Part shown: positions 5,926 through 60,069 of the stretch, piece after piece | How the letters are laid out: each line of letters begins with the position of its first letter | Numbering within the stretch: the first letter of the stretch is position 1 | Source: a virus | DNA: 64,000 nucleotides | Direction: 5' to 3' (one strand) | UHGV virus genome: UHGV-0214148 | The notes under the pieces: generated by a model | What the model was told of the DNA's origin: nothing | The model's database searches: none | What the model saw: only the letters and a program-made list of their open reading frames with translations | Translations under genes and position numbers: made by a program

Positions 5926-6438
5926 CTACTCTCCAAAAGTTAAGATTTTATTGTCAAACGTCAACACGACAGAATCATCACCGATGCCACACGGTGTTTC
6001 ATCTGGGCCGAAAACCACCACGGAGAACTGTCCTTTATAAGCGATGGAATTTGGAGCGATGCTAAGCGTTACCGCGTCTTTACCTACCGTGAACGACTGG
6101 TCGGTTAAATCGTCGGTTTGTAAGTTAGCACCACAAACGGCATTGACGGATTCGATAAGATCGTGTGCATTAAACCCTTCACCTATTACTTTTACCAGAA
6201 TAGGTTGTTGGTTTAACCACCGCTCTGCGGTTAAACGGTTGTAGTAGATTTGCAACGTTCTGTTTCCAGGACGTTTAATCTTTACAATGGCAGTGGAGTC
6301 ACGATCCATTTCATCACTGGTTTTTACGTCACTGACTTCAACCTCGTTCTCTTGCAAGTCAAGTTGGAGGTCATGGTTAACCAGTGAAATAACCATGTTA
6401 AGTGAAGTTAGTGATAAATCTGGTGTGAATTTTTCCAC
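5926..6438 (-). CDS. tail-fibre-associated protein, paralog of 12527..13087 (GTG start)
   Basis: GTG start with AGGAGG RBS; clear similarity to 12527..13087 (PDLSL...LVNHD..., YY.RL.A...L...PIL, N..D....VN..CG.NLQ..DL); sits immediately upstream of a fibre gene. Confidence 0.7.
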   Translation of the reverse strand: MEKFTPDLSLTSLNMVISLVNHDLQLDLQENEVEVSDVKTSDEMDRDSTAIVKIKRPGNRTLQIYYNRLTAERWLNQQPILVKVIGEGFNAHDLIESVNAVCGANLQTDDLTDQSFTVGKDAVTLSIAPNSIAYKGQFSVVVFGPDETPCGIGDDSVVLTFDNKILTFGE

Positions 6439-6492
6439 GTATGTTTACCTCCTAAGGTTGGGGGTCATAAAATATTGACTAAAAAACATTCA

Positions 6493-6979: not shown

Positions 6980-7032
6980 CCATTGTTCGCCCGTTTCGTT
7001 CTTAGCCGAAGAACCGACCCACGAACCGGTTA

Positions 7033-33238: not shown

Positions 33239-35422
33239 TCACTTAGGTAGCTGGTCTAACGTAAACCCTTCGAGATCGTTAATTTTCACCTGTTCGTTTA
33301 ACGCCCAGTCGTCAAGTGAAGACTTGACCTTAACAATCCCGGTGGTCGGTTCATTAATATCCACCACGACTTGCTGATTCACTCTCACACGGATACCCAT
33401 GTAAATGTTCATCCGTAGTTTGATGTGTTGCGGCATGGACAGTTCTTTAATCACCGGCGCTGCGGGAAGCACTTTGTCCGTCGTCATGTATTGGTGTCGC
33501 GTAACTGACTGTACGCCTAAGAGAGGTTCAATAATGGTAACTGTACCCTCCCCACTCATAGGGATATCCCCTAAGATTGGACAAAGCGGGTCCATAACGT
33601 CGTAAGAATCTGACCCCATCCGCGCAGCAAAATGTACGGTATACGACGAAAGCGTGGTCATTAATCGGACCATCGCGCGCTGTATTTCAGATTGCGAAAT
33701 TGTTGCACGCGTTTCAAGGTTTGTTGCGGTGTTCAATGCATCGACTGCAATATCTTGCCACGTCTCTGCAGAGACCAACGTATAGTCTAGCCCAAAGGTC
33801 TTAAAGAACTCGTCGTAGTTACGATACTTTAACTTTAAATCACAGCGATAATCACGATAATGGTAATCGAACAACATTAAGCCCGCAGCACGATCGGGAA
33901 TCTTACGGCGGTTTTGGCTGTAACGCCAACGGCGTCGCTTCTGTAAGATAATTTCATTAACCGTATCGTAAAGTTCGTCGGCACTGAGAATGGTCCCGAC
34001 TACCTCGGTGTGGGTGTCGGTATAGTAGTTAATCAGCGCATCGAAACGATGTTCCCAACTCGGGATAAGATGTTGTTCCATTTCATCGAAGGGCACCCAA
34101 CGTTTAATCAACACATCAAAAACGTTAAATACGGGGATTTCTTCAAGGGCAACATCGGAGTAACCTTTATACGCCGCGTACAGAAACAGTGCCAACAGTT
34201 CTTTCGAACTTAACTTTAATGTATCGCCGTTCGTTGGGTTAAGAATCTCATGGTAGATGCTGTATTTTCCCTTCGCTACCAAATGTACCCATTCATTAAA
34301 GAGGTTATGTGTGTATTCAAAACGCTCAATAGCTTCTGGGTCAACGGCGGTTACTTCTACGAGTTTCGTCGTTAAGTTGGGGTATTGTGTCAGACTCAGT
34401 CGTGTGTCTAAGTCTTCTTGGTACTCTGGTTCGTACGCCGGGTTGTTATACGCTAACCCCACCTCTTTTTGGATTATGTCCGTAGTGGTAACAATATCCA
34501 AATCGCGTCCAGAGTCTTTCTCTGTGTAGTTTAAAGATTGCTGATAACCGATAGGCAACGGTGTTAAGGTTGAATCGTCATCATCTTTCGGCTCGTGAAT
34601 CTGCTGCGCAACATTATACCCAACCGCAGGCATTCCCCAGCCTGTCAGTAGCGCATCGATTTGCCAGTCGAAGATCTCCTCTTTCCCTGAGTTACGTTCC
34701 CAGTATCGAATATTTCGATAAAGAATGAATTTTTGTTTCTGAGTCAGGTACGGCATAAACTCATGCAGTTCCTGGTGCGAAGCTAAAAATTCGGTAACGA
34801 AGAAAGAGTGTGTTTCTGTCGTATGCTGTAAAGAAGAACGAATATAACCAATTATGCCCGGTAGCTGCGGAAACAACATGCAGTAGAAAGCTAACACAAA
34901 CGCATCGTTGTGGACCTTCCAACCCTCAGCCATGTAACGGACGTGGGCTGCACGAATTCTCGCTTCCAGTCGGCTAATCAATGACGTCTCTTGTGATTCT
35001 ACTAACGAACTGTCGTAGTACAAAATAGAACAATCGTCTACACGTAACGCGTAATTTAAATCGATTGGCGTAAAGACGCCGCGAATATAAACCGCGTATT
35101 CGGGATAAGTTGCGATCAACGCCTCGATATACTCGACATTCGAACGAAAAACGTTAGAGGTCTTTTTATGACGGGACAGGTTGGCTGTCGTTAATTCTAT
35201 CTGCTCTTGCGTGTCGAGCGACGTGATGTAAATGGGTTTATCCATTTCGTGACGTTGTCCTGCTAAATGCAGGTAGTATCGCCACGTACTACGGTTATCG
35301 GAAACGAAACCGCCGTTCTCGGTTATTGCCAGATTCATCTGTTGTGCGATTGATTCTGATTTAATAATCAGCGATTTCGCCAACGCGATGTTCTGATCAC
35401 GAAATATGTTAAATCTCTGCAT
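33239..35422 (-). CDS. hypothetical large protein (start revised to ATG 35422)
   Basis: ORF track uses TTG at 35434; ATG at 35422 (MQRFNIF) is more likely. Divergent from plus-strand gene only 11 nt away. Confidence 0.8.
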   Translation of the reverse strand: MQRFNIFRDQNIALAKSLIIKSESIAQQMNLAITENGGFVSDNRSTWRYYLHLAGQRHEMDKPIYITSLDTQEQIELTTANLSRHKKTSNVFRSNVEYIEALIATYPEYAVYIRGVFTPIDLNYALRVDDCSILYYDSSLVESQETSLISRLEARIRAAHVRYMAEGWKVHNDAFVLAFYCMLFPQLPGIIGYIRSSLQHTTETHSFFVTEFLASHQELHEFMPYLTQKQKFILYRNIRYWERNSGKEEIFDWQIDALLTGWGMPAVGYNVAQQIHEPKDDDDSTLTPLPIGYQQSLNYTEKDSGRDLDIVTTTDIIQKEVGLAYNNPAYEPEYQEDLDTRLSLTQYPNLTTKLVEVTAVDPEAIERFEYTHNLFNEWVHLVAKGKYSIYHEILNPTNGDTLKLSSKELLALFLYAAYKGYSDVALEEIPVFNVFDVLIKRWVPFDEMEQHLIPSWEHRFDALINYYTDTHTEVVGTILSADELYDTVNEIILQKRRRWRYSQNRRKIPDRAAGLMLFDYHYRDYRCDLKLKYRNYDEFFKTFGLDYTLVSAETWQDIAVDALNTATNLETRATISQSEIQRAMVRLMTTLSSYTVHFAARMGSDSYDVMDPLCPILGDIPMSGEGTVTIIEPLLGVQSVTRHQYMTTDKVLPAAPVIKELSMPQHIKLRMNIYMGIRVRVNQQVVVDINEPTTGIVKVKSSLDDWALNEQVKINDLEGFTLDQLPK

Positions 35423-35433
35423 CGGAGACCCCA

Positions 35434-38151
35434 ATGGACGATATTAGTAAATTAACGGGCGACCCCGCCGTAGCTGCAATTCTTCGTAAAACTACGGGCC
35501 CAGCACCCCAGCAACAACGCGGTACGCGTAGCGAGGGTGGTTCTACGCCAACACGTCAGGAACTTGCAGGAATTGTAAGTTCGCGTATTCGTACTATCAA
35601 AAATGCGGAACGTATCTTTGATGCGTTACCTGAACTCGAAACGATTGTTACCATTGCAACTTCGAGCTTGCTGTCGACAAAAGACTTAATCAACACCACG
35701 TTGATTTACGACAACATCGCAGACATTCCAATTGACTTACGTAATGACCTACTGACACCAACGCGTGATTATCATGATAACGTACGTCAATTACCTAAGA
35801 AATTATATCAGTGGATTTACGACGCGTTAAAAACAAAAGGCGCAAGTCCAGTGATGATAATCTCGGACAACGGTTTTGACCAGTTGTTCGGTTTAGACGC
35901 CAAAGTCGCTACCGAATCCGTACGTCGTTCTCAAGCTGCCTATTTCGAAGAACAGCTCGGTATTCTCGGTCCAATCAACGGGCAAGATGACGGGCAACGG
36001 GTGGGTGTGGAATCTATTCTGAGTCGTGTCCGTGGGCCTGTTAAAGGACCACAATCACTGAAAATCAATTTCAGTAACCATGATAAGATGTTCTCAGATA
36101 AGTTCGAAATGGACATCTCGATCACCGACAACCCACGTATCACGTTACTACCCCATGCTTATCGTCGAATCGCTCATGAGAACGCACGTACTGGTCTCTA
36201 CGGCCAATTAGAGCAAGCCGCATATGAAAAGCCTGCCACACCGACAGGTGCTACGCCGTATGAAGTTAATCAACAGTTTAACGACCGTCAGCGTGACGCG
36301 GCTGAAAAAGGCTTCATTAACTTAGGCGATCTGAACGAAGCGTACAAAGGTACACCAAAAACTCAGACTTATGGCGATATTCCGATTATTTCGATGAATG
36401 AAAACAACCAAATCGAATATTTCGAATGCCTATTGCCTGCTGAGTCTACCGCACCGTTGGTTATCGGCGACGACGTTCGTAACCCTATTGGGTTTCTGAC
36501 CATTATTGACGATATGGGTAACTTCATCAACTCACGTTCTTCACTTTACGGGGACGCGAACTTTATGAACTACCTTAATAACGACGGCATGACGGACAGT
36601 ATTATCAACCGCTCTAATTTGGGTTTGGGTAATACCTCTCGTATAACGCCAGAGATCGCCAACCGTTTAAGTGCCCGTTGTAGCGAGATTGCTGAGAACG
36701 AATTTACCCGTGCGTTAAGCCAGGCATTGGGTGGAGCTGAAATCAGCATGAAAATTACCGAAACTTTCGGTCGTATTCTGCTGGCACGTCACCTCGCAAA
36801 ACGTCACACACAGGTTGTCTATATCCCGGTTAATAACTTGTGCTACTTTGCAACGGACTTTAACGAAGATGGTATTGGGGTGTCTATCACTGAACGTTCC
36901 TTTATCATTTCTACGGTCAGGATGGCGCTGTTGTTCGCAACGATGAACTCTTCAGTGTTGAACTCAGCACGTCACATGCAATACGACATCGAGTTATCGC
37001 CGGACGATATGAACGGTCAGAAAACGGTTGACCAGGTTAAATCAGATATCCTTAACTCCTATAACCGTCGTTTACCGATGTGGGGTGATATCAATGACGC
37101 TTGGTCGATGGGGGCTAATGCCGGGATTGCATTTAACGTGACGGGTAATGAATACTACGCCAGTCATAAAGTGTCCGTTTCGGACACAACGCCTGAGTAT
37201 AAAGTGCCCGATCAACAAATCGATGAAAACTTACTCCGTCGTACTTGTCACATCGCGTGTGTAGACCCGGATCTTGTTTTGACGCCGGAAAACCTGGAAT
37301 TTGCTTCGCAGATTTATTCCAAGTCACTGCTGGTCACTCAGCAAATCGTGAAGAAACAAGAAATTCTGTCTACGCCGTTAACACGCTACGTGACAAACAG
37401 TTTGCAAGCCTCTCCTAAATTACAAGCAGAGTTGGTTCGTATTATTGTTGAATATATTCGCAATCAAAATCCTAATGTAACAGGTGAAGACTTGACCAAA
37501 CAAACGTCGGAGTATCTGGCGAAGTTCATCAACGGTATGAAGGTCACTTTACCACCACCAGACACATCAGCTTCTTCTTCACAAGCGGATCTGTTTGATA
37601 AACGCTATGAGTTCATTGAGAAACTGGCGGATCTGGTTGTTACCGACGATATTTCGAATATGCTTCAGAATGAAGGTATCGAAATGCAGCCTGATGATCT
37701 CAAGACGATGATTAAATCGTTCTATACGCGTAACTGGCTGCGTAATCAAGGCATCGAAACCGATCTGTTTGATTTGATCTACGACGAAGATAAACGTGGT
37801 GAAAACGTCAAGATGATTTCTGATGAAATCGCAGCAGCATCGAAGACGCTGATTCAGTTAGCTAAACGCACAACAGGTAAAGTTGAAACCTTAGCAAAAG
37901 CGGCTGATTTGAATCCTGAGGACGCCAATAACTTCGGCGGGGGTAGCGACTTCGGTGGCGGCTCTGAAGACGACGGTGGCTTAGGGGGCGATGAGGACTT
38001 AGGTGGTGACGATATGGGCGGTGATGAAGACTTGGACATGTCTGATGATGAAACGACGGAAACCGATACGACAACGGAAGAAGACGTTTCTGCTGAAGAC
38101 ACAGACGAGACGGATACCGGTACAGACGACAACGCCGATGAAACTCTCTAA
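35434..38151 (+). CDS. large protein (905 aa) with Gly/Asp/Glu-rich acidic C-terminal tail
   Basis: GGAG RBS; long ORF; followed by bidirectional terminator. Confidence 0.85.
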   Translation: MDDISKLTGDPAVAAILRKTTGPAPQQQRGTRSEGGSTPTRQELAGIVSSRIRTIKNAERIFDALPELETIVTIATSSLLSTKDLINTTLIYDNIADIPIDLRNDLLTPTRDYHDNVRQLPKKLYQWIYDALKTKGASPVMIISDNGFDQLFGLDAKVATESVRRSQAAYFEEQLGILGPINGQDDGQRVGVESILSRVRGPVKGPQSLKINFSNHDKMFSDKFEMDISITDNPRITLLPHAYRRIAHENARTGLYGQLEQAAYEKPATPTGATPYEVNQQFNDRQRDAAEKGFINLGDLNEAYKGTPKTQTYGDIPIISMNENNQIEYFECLLPAESTAPLVIGDDVRNPIGFLTIIDDMGNFINSRSSLYGDANFMNYLNNDGMTDSIINRSNLGLGNTSRITPEIANRLSARCSEIAENEFTRALSQALGGAEISMKITETFGRILLARHLAKRHTQVVYIPVNNLCYFATDFNEDGIGVSITERSFIISTVRMALLFATMNSSVLNSARHMQYDIELSPDDMNGQKTVDQVKSDILNSYNRRLPMWGDINDAWSMGANAGIAFNVTGNEYYASHKVSVSDTTPEYKVPDQQIDENLLRRTCHIACVDPDLVLTPENLEFASQIYSKSLLVTQQIVKKQEILSTPLTRYVTNSLQASPKLQAELVRIIVEYIRNQNPNVTGEDLTKQTSEYLAKFINGMKVTLPPPDTSASSSQADLFDKRYEFIEKLADLVVTDDISNMLQNEGIEMQPDDLKTMIKSFYTRNWLRNQGIETDLFDLIYDEDKRGENVKMISDEIAAASKTLIQLAKRTTGKVETLAKAADLNPEDANNFGGGSDFGGGSEDDGGLGGDEDLGGDDMGGDEDLDMSDDETTETDTTTEEDVSAEDTDETDTGTDDNADETL

Positions 38152-38154
38152 ATA

Positions 38155-38220
38155 GCAAAAAAAAAATAATTCGAGCTTACTCCGACCCTTCTGGGGTCGG
38201 AGTGGCTTTTCTTTTTTTTT
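38155..38220. terminator. bidirectional intrinsic terminator between convergent genes
   Basis: A10-hairpin(CTCCGACCC...GGGTCGGAG)-T-rich run. Confidence 0.75.
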
Positions 38221-38520
38221 TCACCACGCTATCTCGTCTTTCTTAATAGCAAGGTCCAGCATCACTCCTATTGCTAAGGGATCGTTATCGTACGCCGTCA
38301 GTTTCGCTAACAGTTCCGACTGACCTGATTTCTTGACGGCTTTCAGTAACTCATTACGTGCATTATAGTAGATAAGCCAGTATCTACCGTGATTGATTTT
38401 GGTGTTTGAATGCTCTAATAAGTAGCGATTAAACTCCATGGTTGCTTTGGTTTCAGGTAACTCAAAACGAAAACGTGGGCTACGTTCGTAGTCTACATTA
38501 ATAACGACATATTTAATCAT
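38221..38520 (-). CDS. hypothetical protein (99 aa)
   Basis: ORF with GAGG RBS. Confidence 0.7.
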   Translation of the reverse strand: MIKYVVINVDYERSPRFRFELPETKATMEFNRYLLEHSNTKINHGRYWLIYYNARNELLKAVKKSGQSELLAKLTAYDNDPLAIGVMLDLAIKKDEIAW

Positions 38521-43377: not shown

Positions 43378-43465
43378 GGGAACCCAAGCTAAATTTTAAT
43401 GATGACACATATCTTTAGTTTAAACTGTATTTTTTCCATACATACTCCTTTAAAACCAACTGGCC

Positions 43466-43500
43466 GTCTCCCTTTAATAATATCTATCCAAAAAATAATA
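43466..43500 (-). promoter_or_regulatory. promoter-like motif copy 7 (degenerate, ends ...TATTAAAGGGAGAC)
   Basis: GGATAGATATTATTAAAGGGAGACG following the capsid-gene terminator. Confidence 0.4.
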
Positions 43501-43552
43501 GAAAGAAAAAAAAATAAAAGGTCTAAGCCCCGAAGGGCTTAGACTCTTTTTA
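43495..43552. terminator. strong bidirectional terminator downstream of 764-aa virion gene
   Basis: A-run-GTCTAAGCCC-CGAA-GGGCTTAGAC-TCTTTTT. Confidence 0.75.
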
Positions 43553-43559
43553 AGCAAGA

Positions 43560-45854
43560 TTACTTACCAGCAGCAGCTTTGCCTTCGCCAGCAACGTTAC
43601 CTGCTACACCACCTTCGGTTTGTTTCTGACCGTTCTGTTCAACAGAAACATTGTAAGCCAGTTTTTCTTCAACCAGTTTGGTGATGCCTTTAACCCAGAT
43701 CAGACCAGTGATCGGGCAGTGGCAGATGTGCGCGTTACGCGGCTGTACGGCCAGCTCTTTAGAGGTAGAACCGTTACGCTGAATGTTGATGTTGGTAACC
43801 ATGATCGGAGACCAGAAGTGGTTACCCCAGTTCAGCACGTTGTAGGAACCATCGTCCGCAGTCGGAACTTTCAGGAACCATTGCAGACGACGAGTCCAGG
43901 AACCGTCAGCTGCGTTGTAGATACGCCAGCGGTCATCGTTGGTGGTGATCACTTCGTATTCGTAGCGATCGCCCAGCAGACGTTGGTCGCCCTGTACCAG
44001 CAGCAGCATAGATGCAGTCGGTTCGTCAGTTGCAATAACAACTTTCGGCAGAATGTCCGGATCGGCAGTGTACAGACGCAGCGCAGGAATGAAGCGAGAT
44101 TCCTGGATAGCCTGAGTTACCTGATTACCGATACGCTGTACCAGGCCCTGACGAGCGTTGATCAGTGCATCTTTGGTATCCAGGGACTGTACAACTTCAT
44201 CAACGTTGTAGTCAGACTCTTTGAACCACGGAGCAACCCAGTGACGGCCCAGACCACGAATGGCCGGTTTGTCCCACGGAGTGATCATGCTTGCAGCAGC
44301 GTTACGTACCGCTTCGGTGTAAGACAGCGTCTGAGTGATAGCCAGCTGTTCGTTACGGATGTTAACTGCGGAAATCAGGTCGTCCAGACGTTCGGTATCG
44401 TCGTATTCAACGCCAACCGGAGACTTGGTCAGGATCGGAGAACCGTATTGCAGTTTGTAGTTTTCTTGTTCCCAGATTGGGTCAAGCAGCAGACCCTGGG
44501 TACGACGGTTTTCGTTGGTACGAGTACCATCGAAGCGCCAGCCCATCAGTTCAAGTTTCAGACCGTCCAGGATAACTTTGCCGGTACCAGATTTGGTATC
44601 AACTTTGTTACCGGTAGCGTCGTACAGACCTTCGATTTCCAGTTTGTGACCAGCGATGTCAACTTTACCACCGAACTGACCGGTAGTGAACAGAGACATG
44701 TTGATGGTGATCACATAACGCAGGGTGTAGGAGTTCTGTTCCAGTGATTTCAGTGCCGGAATAGCTTCGCCTTTCCAGTCGGTGGTTTTCGCATTCAGAG
44801 AGAACGCAGTACGACGGAATTGCAGTACCAGCTCACGGCCATCACCTTCAGCAGGACGCTGGAAGGTTGCGAACTGCATGTCACGAACGTGCAGTTTGAT
44901 GAATTTACCTGCTTTCGCTTCTTCGGTCGGTTTACGTACGGAAATCAGCAGGCTGCCCAGAGCACAACCCGGTGCGATTTCATCAGTTTCGTCGTAACCT
45001 TCCTGAACGATACCCGGATGCGCAGACAGCTGGAACAGGTTCAGAGTGTCTTTAGCAAAGCTCAGGTAGTTAGTCGGGTACGGAGGTACACGACCCAGGC
45101 GAACAGATTCGTTCGGTACCAGTTCTTCGCTTACGAAGTATTCAGCGTTTTCACCGGTTTCCATTACGTAAGGAACGATGTTGATCGCTTCGTCCTGAAG
45201 AACGGTGTGGTCAGTCAGCGCTTCGTGCAGGTTACGACGATGATCTTCAACAACGTCTTTGGTCAGTAACGCGTGCATGACACCACGAGAAACGGTGGTC
45301 ACTTTGGTACGTACGGTAATACCAACATCGTTGGTGTCAACGGTGATGGTCGGGAACAGAGTCTCAGCAAAACGAGACTGAGTTTCCAGAGCACGTACGT
45401 TCAGCGTCCAGGTCAGACCCAGGTTTTTGTCGTAATCTTTGTTGGTGTAGTATTCCTGAGCAACAACCATACGCTCTTTGCCCCAGTCGCCGTTACCAGC
45501 TTGGGAACCAGGAATCGCAACGTCCAGGTTAAAACGGCTATGGAATTCTGGCTTAGCGTATTCTTGCGCTACTTTTTCTTGCAGGTCCATACCGTGACCA
45601 GCAGCACCCAGAATCATTGCAGAAGCAACTTCCGCAGCGTGGGACATTTTCTTACCGCCAGCAAACGCGTTTGCGTAGTGCTGTGCAGCATCGTCACGCA
45701 GGGTACCAAAAACTTTCGTGTTGCTACGTACAGACTCACCAGCAACGATGGTGTTCCACATTTCGCCAGCACTGTTGTTACTAATGACGCTTTGTACCAG
45801 CGAGTTACCAGCTTGTACGAGTTTCTCCAGATTAGAGATTCGGGTATCTTTCAT
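43560..45854 (-). CDS. highly expressed major virion protein candidate (764 aa; possibly major capsid protein)
   Basis: E. coli-optimal codon usage (CTG, CGT, GGT, AAC, GAA) contrasting with neighbours; strong bidirectional terminator immediately downstream. Function inferred only from size and expression signature. Confidence 0.85.
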   Translation of the reverse strand: MKDTRISNLEKLVQAGNSLVQSVISNNSAGEMWNTIVAGESVRSNTKVFGTLRDDAAQHYANAFAGGKKMSHAAEVASAMILGAAGHGMDLQEKVAQEYAKPEFHSRFNLDVAIPGSQAGNGDWGKERMVVAQEYYTNKDYDKNLGLTWTLNVRALETQSRFAETLFPTITVDTNDVGITVRTKVTTVSRGVMHALLTKDVVEDHRRNLHEALTDHTVLQDEAINIVPYVMETGENAEYFVSEELVPNESVRLGRVPPYPTNYLSFAKDTLNLFQLSAHPGIVQEGYDETDEIAPGCALGSLLISVRKPTEEAKAGKFIKLHVRDMQFATFQRPAEGDGRELVLQFRRTAFSLNAKTTDWKGEAIPALKSLEQNSYTLRYVITINMSLFTTGQFGGKVDIAGHKLEIEGLYDATGNKVDTKSGTGKVILDGLKLELMGWRFDGTRTNENRRTQGLLLDPIWEQENYKLQYGSPILTKSPVGVEYDDTERLDDLISAVNIRNEQLAITQTLSYTEAVRNAAASMITPWDKPAIRGLGRHWVAPWFKESDYNVDEVVQSLDTKDALINARQGLVQRIGNQVTQAIQESRFIPALRLYTADPDILPKVVIATDEPTASMLLLVQGDQRLLGDRYEYEVITTNDDRWRIYNAADGSWTRRLQWFLKVPTADDGSYNVLNWGNHFWSPIMVTNINIQRNGSTSKELAVQPRNAHICHCPITGLIWVKGITKLVEEKLAYNVSVEQNGQKQTEGGVAGNVAGEGKAAAGK

Positions 45855-45866
45855 TTGTTTAATACC

Positions 45867-46391
45867 TTAATGAGATAAATGACATGCGTATAATTGCGTC
45901 AGCACTTCGTTAGCGGCAAACTGCGTTGAGGTACTGAAGCAGTCATCCACGACGCGAGTCTTGGTACGCATATATTTAAAAAGTTCTGCGCAGAACATCT
46001 TTTTCGCAGCGTGGTCTTCACCCGAAGAAAAACCCGAACCGGACTTCGCTTCTGCAAATGACGCCACAATCGTATCACCACGTTGAGTAAACACCCAACG
46101 TACGCGACAAGGAATTGTTTCCCCATATAAATCGTCAAGGGAAACCTTTTCGCCTGATTCGACCAGACGTAACACCTGATCATAATATTTACCTGGAAGC
46201 ACAGGCGGAGCCATCAGTGCTTTATAAATAGCAGAACGACTTACTTCAGGTAAGATAATAGAACTGAAACCATTCGGACAGTCATATAACCAGTTAAAGA
46301 ACCCTGCCTGGAGCAATTCTATACTTTTAACGGCAGCGCCTTTATCTATGTTAGGTTGAACTTCCCACGGTGGACTAAAACGAATTTGCAT
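45867..46391 (-). CDS. hypothetical protein (174 aa)
   Basis: ORF track; 12 nt upstream of the 764-aa gene. Confidence 0.7.
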   Translation of the reverse strand: MQIRFSPPWEVQPNIDKGAAVKSIELLQAGFFNWLYDCPNGFSSIILPEVSRSAIYKALMAPPVLPGKYYDQVLRLVESGEKVSLDDLYGETIPCRVRWVFTQRGDTIVASFAEAKSGSGFSSGEDHAAKKMFCAELFKYMRTKTRVVDDCFSTSTQFAANEVLTQLYACHLSH

Positions 46392-46404
46392 TTAAGGATG
46401 CTCC

Positions 46405-47967
46405 ATGAATAACAAAATGATGTTGATAACCGCCTTAGCCACATTATACGCTGAAAGTCTTCTGACCGATCCTGAAAAGGACCACGACATCATAAGAAAA
46501 GTGCTGTTAGAGGCTAAGCTTCCTGATTACGCAGAAGAAGGTGACGAACGTGCCGCCCTCGTCGAAATCAAGGATATCATCACATCCATCATAGACGGCG
46601 GTATGCCTTACGACCACACAAACGTCATGAAACGTTTGAAACTGGCCACTACGCAAATACGTCCTCTATACGATACGATTACCAAATTCCTGGAAGATGA
46701 TATTCCAGAAGAACCAGAAGCACGCATCGAGCATCTTAATCGCCAAGTAGCACAATACTACTTTCAGTTACGTCAAGCTATTCAAGGCGTACAACTGAAA
46801 CAAAAATTGGGTCGTACGTTAGGCGCACTGAACGGCACTGAAACGCGTGTTGATTTACAAACGGCGCTCAACGACCTTAAGGATACCTTATCCACGTTCA
46901 GTGAACGCTCTCATAATAAGATTCCTTCTCTGGTAGGGGAATTGATTACTGACAATAAAGCACCCTTCGTACATGTATTCGACTCTATCAGTAAGAAAGC
47001 GGCAGGGAACGGGTTGCGTACGGGGTGGAAAGCAATTAACCAAATGCTTGGCTGTAACAAAGGGATCACTGAAGAACTCTGGCTGATGCCTGCTCTCCCC
47101 TTTAACTGTAAGTCATTATTCAGTTTATTGCTCTCTATTAGCATTCCTGTATTCAACACCCCAGAAAAGGTGATGGCAAATGTTAAAGGTGACTTACAAC
47201 CGGTTATTCTGGATTTAAGTTTAGAAAACGAATTAGATGTTAACTTGGCTTACGCGTATCAAGCACTTTACGGACACTTTGAAGGTACAGCTCCGGTAAT
47301 GGTTGCACCTGAAACGGCAACTGACGAAGAAAAAGCGCTACACAATGCACAAATGTCAGATTACCTCTGTAGTAAAATGCGGGCAAACGGTTGGGAGTAT
47401 ATTTTCCAAAAACACACAAACTCCGATTTTAAAATTCACTATTTGAATGATTTGATTTTAGATTTAAAACGTCGAGGTTATCATGTAGCTGGAATACGCG
47501 GAGACTATTTCGGTACTATCAGCAAAGCAGGACACGGTAACGGTATTGCGGGTAGTGACATTAAAGAAATTTATCGTATCGCGCGAAACATCCAAGTGGT
47601 ACGTAATCGTGGTTTCCTCTTAGCACCACACCAAATCTCACCAGAAGGCAAAAAATTAAAAGCACTCGACCCAGCAAGTTTCTGTAAGAGCTTACCTGGT
47701 CGTGGTCTTTACGACAACTGCTCTAGCTTAGACAACGAAGCTGACGGTGAGATGTATTTTAACAAACGTGTCGTCAGCGGACACAGCTATTTAGAAGTAC
47801 AACGCGGTAAACACCGTACCATTATTGACACCAAAGAAGCTTATCATTATACTGTAATACCTTTCCGCGATGTTGGCATTTTGCCATGGGATTGTGATAA
47901 AGAAGAAACTGTAACAGCCTCGTCGATTAACGTATTTACCGGCGGCATGGGTGACGAACTCTTTTGA
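46405..47967 (+). CDS. hypothetical protein (520 aa)
   Basis: Plus-strand ORF followed by plus-oriented terminators. Confidence 0.8.
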   Translation: MNNKMMLITALATLYAESLLTDPEKDHDIIRKVLLEAKLPDYAEEGDERAALVEIKDIITSIIDGGMPYDHTNVMKRLKLATTQIRPLYDTITKFLEDDIPEEPEARIEHLNRQVAQYYFQLRQAIQGVQLKQKLGRTLGALNGTETRVDLQTALNDLKDTLSTFSERSHNKIPSLVGELITDNKAPFVHVFDSISKKAAGNGLRTGWKAINQMLGCNKGITEELWLMPALPFNCKSLFSLLLSISIPVFNTPEKVMANVKGDLQPVILDLSLENELDVNLAYAYQALYGHFEGTAPVMVAPETATDEEKALHNAQMSDYLCSKMRANGWEYIFQKHTNSDFKIHYLNDLILDLKRRGYHVAGIRGDYFGTISKAGHGNGIAGSDIKEIYRIARNIQVVRNRGFLLAPHQISPEGKKLKALDPASFCKSLPGRGLYDNCSSLDNEADGEMYFNKRVVSGHSYLEVQRGKHRTIIDTKEAYHYTVIPFRDVGILPWDCDKEETVTASSINVFTGGMGDELF

Positions 47968-48070
47968 GTCTGGGGAGCTTCGGCTCCCCCTATAACCCCT
48001 TATGCGTCTCGGAAAGCAAAAAAAAACAGAAGACTATTAATTATGAATGGAAAACAACTACCGAACTAAG

Positions 48071-48271: not shown

Positions 48272-48332
48272 TTTTCATTACCTTTCGTAATGTTGTAAAA
48301 ACGTCAACAACTTTATGTGTTGACACCGTACA

Positions 48333-48420
48333 GTAGAGACTGTTCCACCAGTCTCTACTGCTTTAACTTCTCTTTGGAAAAGTTAAAGCTAAGAAAAGGG
48401 GTGGTGAAGCACCCTTTTTT
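48333..48420. other. structured intergenic unit U1: variable 10-bp hairpin + conserved 31-nt box + terminator-like hairpin
   Basis: GTAGAGACTG-TTCCAC-CAGTCTCTAC, then TGCTTTAACTTCTCTTTGGAAAAGTTAAAGC, then GGGTG hairpin + T6. Confidence 0.6.
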
Positions 48421-48492
48421 ATACCTACGACCACCATCTCGGCAGGTTACTGTACGAGGAGGAGGGGCGCTGACACGCCCCTCCTTTATTTG

Positions 48493-48666
48493 TTAGTAGT
48501 GTTCACTCCTCTTTTCAGTGAATATCTGCGTGAAACGGTTGGTAGACGGTTTTAACCGTTTATCCATGCCGAGCTGACTATACTTGTAGATACGTTGCTG
48601 TAAATTGGTCTTTGCTGCACTCTGTTCTGCAAGCATTTTGTCAGTAAAGTAGTAACCATTGTTCAT
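48493..48666 (-). CDS. small protein S2 (57 aa), paralog of S3
   Basis: ATG with AGAGGG RBS; aligns with S3 (AEQ...QLG..KRLK.S.N....QIFTE.RS..Y). Confidence 0.55.
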   Translation of the reverse strand: MNNGYYFTDKMLAEQSAAKTNLQQRIYKYSQLGMDKRLKPSTNRFTQIFTEKRSEHY

Positions 48667-48728
48667 GGTAAGCCCTCTTTGTAGGGTGATTAAAGAAATC
48701 CACTACGGAAACGTGGTGGTGCTGTAAA

Positions 48729-48828
48729 GGGTACGCTGGTGCTACAGCGTACCCTGCTTTAACTTCTCTTTCGAAAAGTTAAAGCTATGTAAAGGGGTGT
48801 GACAGCACCCCTTTATTTTATTTAGTAG
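48729..48828. other. structured intergenic unit U2 (same architecture)
   Basis: GGGTACGCTG-GTGCTA-CAGCGTACCC + conserved box + terminator hairpin. Confidence 0.6.
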
Positions 48829-48992
48829 TTACTTCTCCTTTCGGTGAAGATCTGTACTCGAGGATTGTTAGAGGCTTTAAGCCTTTTATTTAATCCGAGT
48901 TGTTGAACCTCTCTTAGTCGTTCATTAAACCTCGCTTGTTCTGCATAGCTGTTTGAGATAGAAGTAAAGATACGTGTATTGTTGTTAGTCAT
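48822..48992 (-). CDS. small protein S3 (56 aa), paralog of S2
   Basis: ATG with GAGG RBS; conserved with S2 at protein level. Confidence 0.55.
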   Translation of the reverse strand: MTNNNTRIFTSISNSYAEQARFNERLREVQQLGLNKRLKASNNPRVQIFTERRSNY

Positions 48993-49020
48993 GTTAAAAC
49001 CTCACACGAGTTGGGGATTA

Positions 49021-49140
49021 AGCTATTACGTACCGGTAATAGCGACAAGTAGGGACTGTATAGGCAGTCCCTACTGCTTTAACTTCTCTTTCGAAAAGAT
49101 AAAGCGCCTATGGGGAGTGTTGGCGCATTCCCCCTTTAGG
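49021..49140. other. structured intergenic unit U3 (same architecture, preceded by 22-bp palindrome)
   Basis: GTAGGGACTG-TATAGG-CAGTCCCTAC (compensatory change relative to U1) + conserved box + hairpin. Confidence 0.6.
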
Positions 49141-58700: not shown

Positions 58701-58714
58701 ATTATTTTTAATGC

Positions 58715-58760
58715 GAAAAAAAAAAGAAAGGGGAGAACCACCCCATTACAGGGTGGTTCT
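58715..58760 (-). terminator. intrinsic terminator after paralog A virion gene
   Basis: AGAACCACCC-CATTACA-GGGTGGTTCT + T10. Confidence 0.65.
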
Positions 58761-58779
58761 CTTACTAAACAATCAGGGA

Positions 58780-60069
58780 TTATTTAGATTTTTCGTAAGC
58801 AGCGATACCTGCGGAGATATAGCCGTTCAGACCGCCAGCCAGATGTTTCTGAGTAGAGGCAATAACTTTCTCGCCCAGAGACACTGCCTGGTTAATGCTG
58901 TTGATGTAACGACGTGCGGTACGTACAGATTCGGTCAGTTCCGGTTTTTCGTCGATCTTCACGCTGTCGATTTCTTTCAGCAGCTTCTCAATCTGCTGAC
59001 TGAATTTCTCGCGAGCCTGTTCGGTCTTACGATATTCCAGAACGTTCTTCTCAATCTGTTTACCCACTTCGTTGAAGAAGGCATTGGTCTTAGCCAGTTC
59101 GCTAACAGACGGAGTTTTAACGTTGGTTTCAGCACGGTTTTCAGCTTCCACGTAGCTGGAGCTAAAGCCGCCTTCTTCGTCATATTCCATCTTCAGCGCC
59201 ATGTTACCAAGTTTGAACTTGTTAACGTCTTCTTTGGCCAGAGCAGCGAAGTCTGCTTTCAGTTTATCAACTTTAGCGCCATCGCCTTTAACAACGTTAC
59301 CAACCAAATCCGTACCGTTGTTCAGGAAGCTCTGAACGTTACCACTGTAGTAGGTGGAAACGTGGTTCAGGATATTCTTCAGGCGCACCAGATCGTCACC
59401 AACGAATTTACCGTCGACGGACAGAGACTTGATGAAGCCACCAGAGATTTCATCTTTCTTCTGTTTGCCCAGCTTACGAATAGCTTCGTCGTATTTCTTA
59501 GAACGGGCCTGGATGGATTTACCCTGGTTGGAGAATTTCAGCCAACGATCTTTGATCTTACGGCCTTGTTCTTTCAGCCATTCCCAAATACGTTTCAGGA
59601 AGGCTTTAATGTCTTCCCACAGGGATTCACGAGCAACCTGACGACGGTTACGAGAACCGTAGGATTCGTGAGCAACAGAAGAACGGTGTTCGAAGTTCCA
59701 ACGAGAACGGATAGATTCCTGAGCAACGTCCAGCGCAGTCGCAGCGTCGTCCGGCATATCTTCTTCGGCGTCCATCGGTTCTTCACCGTCTTCGCCAGCA
59801 CCTTCACCGTCAGCAGCAGCCTGAGCTTCATCCAGAACTTCCAGCTGAGCATCAGTTTCGTCACCGTCTTCTGCCAGCAGTTCAGCGTCAGCGTCCAGGG
59901 CTTCGATCGGTTTGGTATCATGCTCGATATCGGCCAGAGTACCTTCAACAGATTCTGCTGGCAGTTCGATGCCGTCTGGAACTACAGTGGCAGTAGCTTC
60001 CATCGATTCACGAGCGGCGCGAGTTTTTGCGAAATTTGCCATTTTAAGCTTTTCCTCTAAGGGGAACAC
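58780..60069 (-). CDS. highly expressed virion-associated protein, paralog A (429 aa)
   Basis: Host-optimal codon usage; first 16 aa (MANFAKTRAARESMEA) identical to paralog B and C-terminus conserved (GLNGY..AGI.AY.KSK). Confidence 0.85.
   Translation of the reverse strand: MFPLEEKLKMANFAKTRAARESMEATATVVPDGIELPAESVEGTLADIEHDTKPIEALDADAELLAEDGDETDAQLEVLDEAQAAADGEGAGEDGEEPMDAEEDMPDDAATALDVAQESIRSRWNFEHRSSVAHESYGSRNRRQVARESLWEDIKAFLKRIWEWLKEQGRKIKDRWLKFSNQGKSIQARSKKYDEAIRKLGKQKKDEISGGFIKSLSVDGKFVGDDLVRLKNILNHVSTYYSGNVQSFLNNGTDLVGNVVKGDGAKVDKLKADFAALAKEDVNKFKLGNMALKMEYDEEGGFSSSYVEAENRAETNVKTPSVSELAKTNAFFNEVGKQIEKNVLEYRKTEQAREKFSQQIEKLLKEIDSVKIDEKPELTESVRTARRYINSINQAVSLGEKVIASTQKHLAGGLNGYISAGIAAYEKSK

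Follow-up and report, generated by a model that had tools for sequence, protein, structure and literature searches.

Conserved tight divergent gene pairs in a phiKZ-like jumbo phage, with minimal promoters predicted inside neighbouring genes

We analysed a stretch of 64,000 nucleotides (nt) of the virus genome UHGV-0214148, called the window below, in which only two genuine genes lie on the plus strand: that of the portal protein and that of a DnaB-like replicative helicase. Each starts back to back with a minus-strand gene, the portal facing a homolog of phiKZ gp128 (junction 1, J1; starts at 35434 and 35422) and the helicase facing a gene of 174 amino acids (aa) placed directly before the major capsid gene (junction 2, J2; starts at 46405 and 46391). 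This divergent layout is a conserved feature of a known phage family, and it is explained by the known biology of minimal promoters. The best overall explanation, which we hold to be rather probable, is that ancestral units of opposite strands are transcribed from minimal promoters of the phage RNA polymerase (RNAP), placed inside the open reading frames (ORFs) of their neighbours. An earlier sequence-only reading had reasoned that, with so little intergenic DNA, the promoters must lie inside the coding sequence of the partner. This is well supported for J2, where cross-genome, rare-codon and motif evidence puts both predicted sites there; for J1, where the same logic would apply, the promoters were not placed.

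Predicted promoter elements at the helicase/capsid junction

Judging by its sequence, the window belongs to a jumbo phage of the SPN3US/Asesino group, phiKZ-like (chimallivirus-type): its DNA is ~77% identical to that of the nearest isolates, and homologs of the major capsid protein, the portal, gp128 and the helicase are present in conserved synteny. The helicase gene is 100% identical to the one on a 225-kb contig of IMG/VR (L011), the probable source of the window. The window was compared with 11 isolates (SPN3US-like genera, the phiKZ-type genome fnug, Serratia phage PCH45 and a Vibrio phage) and, for J2, with 17 genomes from IMG/VR. The development of phiKZ is independent of the host RNAP (PMC4666361, PMC7598289). 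Its late promoters consist of T(-3)ATG(+1) only, to which the middle promoters add AAanTTACc near -24 (PMC7598289, PMC4666361, PMC12809450); TATG is essential and is bound by the beta-like subunit GP123 (PMC12809450). A 591-aa gene of the window would encode the homologous subunit of the non-virion RNA polymerase (nvRNAP), as suggested by its synteny and its ~77% DNA identity to genes called "polymerase" or "RNA polymerase beta subunit" in the relatives.

Two classes of intergenic motif were recognised: class (a), the AT-rich TTCTCAGATATATATTACCTAGGTGAGAG, and class (b), the bipartite TTTTTAC-R-N14-T(A/G)TG, which is found directly after terminators. The form of the phiKZ middle promoters, an AT-rich box ending in TAC or AAC ~19-26 nt before the start motif, is thus recurrent between the genes of the window. 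The strict class (b) pattern has 2 matches in 64 kb for 0.08 expected, the second of them located 35 nt ahead of a gene, within an intergenic stretch of 97 nt. With a weight matrix built from intergenic sites alone, 11 matches are obtained for 1.8 expected; five of the 11 are the training sites themselves, and the sole match on the plus strand is the site that we propose for the helicase.

This helicase site lies inside codons 14-23 of the 174-aa gene, and its predicted start, G 46350, precedes the helicase ATG by 55 nt (Table 1). Its architecture and spacing equal those of a positive control, the intergenic TTTTTTACG-N14-TATG that precedes the gp122 homolog in 6 genomes. Orthologous sites stand 53-56 nt before the helicase ATG in 7/8 relatives; that of EarlPhillipIV is a perfect consensus, and in Wellington the box persists, shifted by 1 nt, although a V is replaced by S. 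On the other strand, the TATG nearest upstream of the 174-aa gene (46494-46491) lies 100 nt before its ATG, inside codons 29-33 of the helicase. The ACTTTTCTTATGA site that contains it is kept in 7/7 aligned genomes and in 17/17 IMG/VR loci. As in the late promoters of phiKZ, a TATG is thus found upstream of a late structural gene.

On the opposite strand, both of these TATGs depend on ATA, an Ile codon whose usage is 6-7%. Over ten aligned genes, ATA is found in every genome at only 2 of the 93 columns with an invariant Ile, precisely those of the two J2 TATGs (codon 15 of the 174-aa gene being one that is ATA everywhere). Likewise a single column among 118 with an invariant Arg is AGA throughout, and it adjoins one of the J2 TATGs. 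Conserved TATGs are rare, 9 in 15.7 kb with both strands counted, and two of them precede the J2 genes in the correct orientation, at 55 and 100 nt. Among the further TATGs conserved in all aligned genomes we also observe one on the minus strand at 46912-46915 (antisense to the helicase, nt 508), and a CATATG palindrome at 36221-36226 (portal, nt 788) that carries the motif on both strands.

It could be argued that the conservation of nucleotides around the junctions reflects translation initiation—overlapping ribosome-binding sites and low mRNA structure—rather than promoters. Each spacer indeed holds two Shine-Dalgarno elements, ribosome footprints would reach into the partner ORF, and the conserved block of J1 (35423-35457) is contiguous with the ribosome-binding site and shows no recognisable promoter motif. 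We find this reading quite unlikely: control genes display no general rise of synonymous conservation at their 5' end, and the J2 elements, which are 55-80 and 100 nt away from the start codons, are outside any ribosome footprint, match the intergenic motif and are fixed by way of the rare codons ATA and AGA. Host promoters inside the ORFs seem far less probable still as the drivers of the divergent genes. Sigma-70-like matches do occur in the region, for instance at 35600-35572 and 35830-35802 on the minus strand, but they are no commoner than in shuffled sequence (25 versus 25.8±4.4); besides, phiKZ is independent of the host RNAP and the phage of the window would encode a homologous polymerase subunit. 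Screens of the region for Rfam families and tRNAs gave no match.

The position of J2 points in the same direction. The published p119L oligonucleotide maps to the gp118/gp119 spacer of phiKZ, 47 nt before gene 119; from gene order, J2 is the positional counterpart of this P119L locus, the best-studied promoter locus of the nvRNAP, and the 174-aa gene that of phiKZ gene 119. In PCH45, we observe AATCTTATG within the 49-nt J2 spacer. In the phiKZ-type genome fnug (L006 982-985) a TATG in the direction of the helicase is found at nt 41-44 of gene 119, after the AT-rich TTGTTAAATTGTAC; the equivalent TATG of the window is at nt 42-45 of the 174-aa gene. The helicase promoter may thus be embedded in the neighbouring ORF even in phiKZ, where the spacer is 139 nt long.

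Table 1. Positions of the genes, spacers, predicted promoters, terminators and repeated elements in the window
Feature	Position	Strand	Remarks
Virion protein gene, 727 aa	33239..35422	-	phiKZ gp128 homolog; SPN3US "virion structural protein 9"
Candidate portal TATG (weak)	35167..35170	+	264 nt upstream of ATG, inside gp128-homolog ORF
J1 spacer, 11 nt	35423..35433		CGGAGACCCCA; back-to-back ribosome-binding sites only
Portal gene, 905 aa	35434..38151	+	homolog of SPN3US gp81 and phiKZ gp129; phrog_3004
Portal codons 1-8	35434..35457		nearly invariant nucleotides; putative 5' untranslated or promoter region of the gp128-homolog operon
Bidirectional terminator module	38157..38221		A10 run, 13-bp GC hairpin 38177-38205, T-run
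nvRNAP beta-like subunit gene, 591 aa	40581..42356	-	putative homolog of phiKZ gp123
Major capsid gene	43560-45854	-	downstream of 174-aa gene
174-aa gene	45867..46391	-	phrog_8266 matched over 1-174; directly upstream of major capsid gene
Predicted helicase promoter	46325..46350	+	TTTTAACG (46325-46332), N14, TATG (46347-46350)
J2 spacer, 13 nt	46392..46404		TTAAGGATGCTCC; ribosome-binding sites AAGGA (helicase, plus) and GGAG (174-aa gene, minus)
DnaB-like replicative helicase gene, 520 aa	46405..47967	+	phrog_3213; Pfam PF20307, E=2e-125; phiKZ gp118 homolog
Predicted late promoter of the 174-aa/capsid unit	46489..46502	-	ACTTTTCTTATGA; TATG 46494-46491, predicted start 46491
Terminator 3' of helicase stop	47972..48004	+	hairpin GGGGAGC-TTCG-GCTCCCC, then TTATG
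Class (a) matches, 34 nt	5' ends 3754, 23232, 50446, 58702, 43494, 17942	-	~50-60 nt upstream of start codons
GCTTTAACTTCTCTTTCGAAAAGTTAAAGC copies	48360-48389, 48756-48785, 49076-49105		each directly after a 12-bp GC hairpin

Depletion of TATG

TATG is the second most depleted of the 256 tetranucleotides in the window, after CTAG, and its complement CATA ranks 4; GATC is also among the most depleted. Antisense to most genes TATG is found 76 times for 199 expected (z=-8.3), and on the sense strand 182 times for 243 (z=-4.6). The depletion is shared by all eight relatives examined (L001-L008, the phiKZ-type genome included), in which the plus-strand motif ranks from 1 to 11. This behaviour is consistent with TATG being a start signal of the polymerase, spurious copies of which would have been purged. 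It also makes the conserved antisense copies of J2 more notable. The depletion is entangled with the rarity of ATA, that is with codon usage, so that we take it as supporting evidence and not as decisive.

Conservation of the divergent layout

The two start pairs are real. In the sequence, CAT at 35420-35422 faces ATG at 35434-35436, and CAT at 46389-46391 faces ATG at 46405-46407. Each spacer contains two Shine-Dalgarno-like elements, back to back and at normal spacing: for J1 these are GGAG for the portal (plus) and GGGG(TCTCC) for the gp128 homolog (minus). The GGAGAC core of the J1 spacer is invariant in 9 genomes—it forms in EarlPhillipIV an explicit palindromic pair, GGAGAC-AA-CTCC—and the J2 spacer is conserved in 25 genomes. 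For all four junction proteins the PHROG match begins at residue 1-2 and extends to the end, and identical starts are annotated in 8 GenBank relatives. A wrong assignment of the start codons, which the earlier reading had named as a way for its claim to fail and which would make the real gaps between the genes wider, is highly improbable. A longer minus-strand ORF initiated at TTG and reaching 35434 does exist on paper; the ATG starts, the N-terminal peptides and the Shine-Dalgarno spacing are however conserved in 8 to 25 genomes, the alignment of the 727-aa protein to phiKZ gp128 begins at residue 4, and internal starts would cut off conserved N-terminal residues.

The identity of the genes agrees with these starts. 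The 727-aa gene heads a long minus-strand structural operon, and its product matches phrog_3222 over 1-725 and the phiKZ-type gp128 in BLASTP (E=4e-85). The 905-aa protein is 72% identical to SPN3US gp81, defined by experiment as the portal (PMC5694885). That only two genuine genes lie on the plus strand, as had been noted from the sequence, is upheld by the competing plus-strand ORFs, which lack family matches: neither the 449-aa ORF at 58711-60060, overlapped by a minus-strand ORF for an internal head protein (E=4e-120), nor four small ORFs of the window gave any. The median gap between tandem genes of this genome is 14.5 nt, so that a short gap is in itself ordinary here; the notable point is that two true divergent pairs are as tight as tandem genes.

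Every relative examined, from the closest of the 11 isolates out to phiKZ, has both pairs with order and orientation unchanged, and the J2 pair is also found in 17/17 metagenomic relatives from IMG/VR, with a gap of 11-14 nt (Table 2 for isolates). The two plus-strand genes have a GC content of 0.459 and 0.429, against 0.449±0.028, a GC content at third codon positions (GC3) that is typical too, and a codon usage that correlates at r = 0.94 and 0.82 (mean 0.81). Since the layout is present in all relatives examined and the composition is typical, the comparison of sequences indicates that the divergent arrangement is ancestral to the family and that the spacers were compressed in the SPN3US-like lineages. 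The suggestion that the two genes are later insertions does not survive this comparison of synteny. As horizontally acquired cassettes in a minus-strand array they would bear a superficial likeness to moron-like units, being the only plus-strand genes and having flanking terminators of their own. Portal and replicative helicase are nevertheless core genes, at the same place and in the same orientation in every relative examined, and in GC, GC3 and codon usage they do not depart from the rest of the phage; we consider such an acquisition hardly credible.

Table 2. Length of the intergenic gap at the two divergent junctions of related phages
Genome	J1 gap (nt)	J2 gap (nt)
SPN3US	11	14
Asesino	11	14
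Stratton	11	14
ChrisDB	15	13
Caitlin	15	13
Wellington	12	13
EarlPhillipIV	15	11
Vibrio phage (portal 31% identical)	26	29
Serratia phage PCH45	24	49
phiKZ-type genome fnug	35	139

Terminators and read-through

The portal stop is separated from the convergent minus-strand gene by a hairpin with an A-run upstream and a T-run downstream, the latter abutting the stop of the convergent gene, which is the arrangement of a bidirectional intrinsic terminator. The A-run/hairpin/T-run module follows the portal in 11/11 genomes, with stem sequences that differ. After the helicase, a hairpin with TTATG is kept in 9 genomes; it matches the terminator motif of phiKZ, a hairpin plus TTAT (PMC10914365). We observe besides that this helicase terminator (in the window and in L001-L005, L007, L009 and L010) includes TATG, the same as the late start signal; a site of coupled termination and re-initiation is a possibility.

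The conserved terminators after both plus-strand genes argue against expression by read-through, and the portal and the helicase each appear to form a self-contained, single-gene transcription unit of the plus strand. Antisense read-through had been proposed as the other way to express these genes; a further form of it would be that the gp128-homolog operon is read through across the portal. J1 is where this idea finds its arguments: no promoter is assignable there on either strand, the sole conserved TATG for the portal would imply a long 5' untranslated region (5'UTR) antisense to the neighbour, and the minus-strand T-run starts ~10 nt past the 38177-38205 stem, so that termination may be leaky. 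On the other hand, in 11/11 genomes the terminator module stands between the portal and the minus-strand genes upstream, the helicase has a well-supported predicted promoter of its own 55 nt upstream, and no plus-strand genes or plus-strand promoter-like matches exist upstream to feed read-through. We judge read-through improbable.

The portal/gp128-homolog junction

At J1 a constraint is visible on the nucleotides, on one side only. Portal codons 1-8 reach a synonymous identity of 0.85 (z=3.3), the highest peak of the 966-codon alignment, and codons 1-15 a value of 0.74 against 0.49; in the gp128 homolog, by contrast, the initial codons are free to vary synonymously. The constrained block, which with the spacer covers 35423-35457, probably serves the 5'UTR or the promoter of the gp128-homolog operon, as the analogy with J2 suggests.

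One further candidate was set aside. A minus-strand box of J1 resembling the phiKZ middle type, TTAATTTAC, is not conserved in Wellington and EarlPhillipIV and has no TRTG at the right spacing.

Several observations weigh against promoters embedded in the neighbours, a number of them at J1. Neither class (a) nor class (b) motifs are found at J1 on either strand. In 7/8 genomes the 600 nt upstream of the gp128 homolog contain no TATG on the minus strand, so that the promoter of its operon is not filed as a phiKZ late type. For the portal, the TATG at 35167-35170 is the only one on the plus strand common to all 8 genomes within 600 nt upstream, but it makes a weak start site: it needs only a His CAT and a Lys, and all-CAT is found in 3 of 43 columns with an invariant His, which is unexceptional. 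The TATG at 35405-35408, 26 nt before the portal ATG, was ruled out as the portal promoter: it is AATG in SPN3US and ATAT or TATA in four other genera, and the surrounding codons vary synonymously. More generally, TATG alone is insufficient in phiKZ, and the extended T-rich motif that two candidate late sites share is not seen again in the window: TTTTYTTATGA, common to the 35170 and 46491 sites, has 1 match, without enrichment, and was not used as evidence. The 174-aa protein shows no homology to phiKZ gp119 by BLASTP or hhalign, the equivalence with P119L being positional only. Some of the conservation near the spacers could stem from ribosome binding. Finally, the genomes compared are related to each other, so that the counts of conservation are not independent, and all start sites given here are predictions.

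Proposed mechanism and likeness to known systems

The explanation that we favour, embedded minimal promoters, takes start sites, acting polymerase and timing as inferred from the observed gene identities, layout, motifs, rare-codon fixation and terminators. Both units would be transcribed by the multisubunit RNA polymerases of the phage, from TATG-type promoters which, with or without an AT-rich ..TTAC box ~20-25 nt upstream, would be small enough to fit into the coding sequence of a neighbour. Transcription of the helicase would begin at G 46350, directed by TTTTAACG-N14-TATG within the 174-aa gene; that of the 174-aa/major-capsid unit would begin on the minus strand at 46491, directed by a late-type TATG within the helicase gene. 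The two messengers would then share ~142 nt of complementary 5' sequence, covering both ribosome-binding sites. The plus-strand genes had been suspected of being regulated unusually: this is apt insofar as the phage would use RNA polymerases of its own and minimal promoters, but such regulation is already known for phiKZ.

J2 resembles the 118/119 locus of phiKZ in that the helicase diverges from a gene of ~175 aa directly before the major capsid gene, with YTATG upstream. The phiKZ P119L is a mapped nvRNAP late promoter of high efficiency, whereas its counterpart in the window is only predicted; P119L is located in a 139-nt spacer, 47 nt before the ATG, whereas the TATG of the window is 100 nt upstream, inside the helicase ORF, the spacer being reduced to 13 nt. 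With the middle promoters of phiKZ (AAanTTACc, some with TATG as in P62M and P78M), the helicase site shares a bipartite structure, an AT-rich box before TATG. It differs from them by the T-run of TTTTTAC, which replaces AAan, and by being embedded in an ORF.

More distant systems offer partial parallels. The late promoter of phage T4 consists of TATAAATA only, and is read by the modified host RNAP with gp55, gp33 and gp45. It is likewise a single, very short element served by a specialised apparatus, which requires no dedicated intergenic space and can sit in a coding sequence; its sequence, its position relative to the start site and its polymerase are different, that of the window family being the multisubunit nvRNAP of the phage. 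In excludon-type loci, for example in Listeria, divergent transcripts overlap and expression is mutually exclusive. The 5' antisense overlap of ~142 nt predicted at J2 would in principle allow the same; here the overlap is predicted only, and the polymerase is encoded by the phage.

One might go further and see in J2 a switch by antisense and transcriptional interference, in which the strong late capsid promoter (~46491) fires through the helicase promoter (~46350). We think such a switch rather unlikely. If it were true, the onset of capsid expression would actively shut down that of the helicase, coupling the transition from replication to packaging, and the shrinking of the spacer, which measures 139 nt in phiKZ and 11-14 nt in the SPN3US-like phages, would have tightened this coupling.

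Other features of the window

The class (a) motif has six strong copies in the window, all on the minus strand and all intergenic (Table 1), one of them upstream of the operon that contains the RNAP beta-like subunit; J1 and J2 have no TTCTCAGATATATATTACCTAGGTGAGAG-type motif. Class (a) probably represents the early promoters (those of the virion RNAP) of this clade.

From the capsid terminator to the gp122 homolog (43378-43559), the window and SPN3US have an extra class (a)-like element and a tiny ORF, of 16 aa in the window; the TTTTTTACG-N14-TATG of the other genomes is missing from the window.

A 30-nt palindromic element, GCTTTAACTTCTCTTTCGAAAAGTTAAAGC, is present in three copies within 48300-49110 (0-1 mismatch; 0 expected by chance), adjoining small minus-strand ORFs where genes are sparse, past the helicase. 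The repeats may be cassettes of regulatory, terminator or promoter type, or else units of small RNAs.

Runs of 9-10 C or G are found at ~1500-1515, ~6430-6440 and ~7000-7010, in three intergenic regions upstream of minus-strand genes, and could be slippage-prone tracts or a feature of the assembly.

Significance for the phage family

We found in the literature no mapped transcription start sites for the SPN3US/Erwinia clade of jumbo phages. What is new in our analysis is a set of promoter predictions for this unmapped clade, the fixation of embedded TATGs by rare codons and the depletion of TATG. The predictions are concrete and testable. They also bear on an open question of phiKZ biology, namely how a TATG of 4 bp specifies promoters: the use of otherwise avoided codons to hold functional TATGs, the depletion of TATG across the family, and the T-rich ..TAC box at -20 to -26 in one class of sites are all relevant to it. 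Any recoding or engineering of the portal, the helicase or the capsid-proximal genes should take into account that the promoter of the neighbour probably lies in the 5' end of these ORFs.

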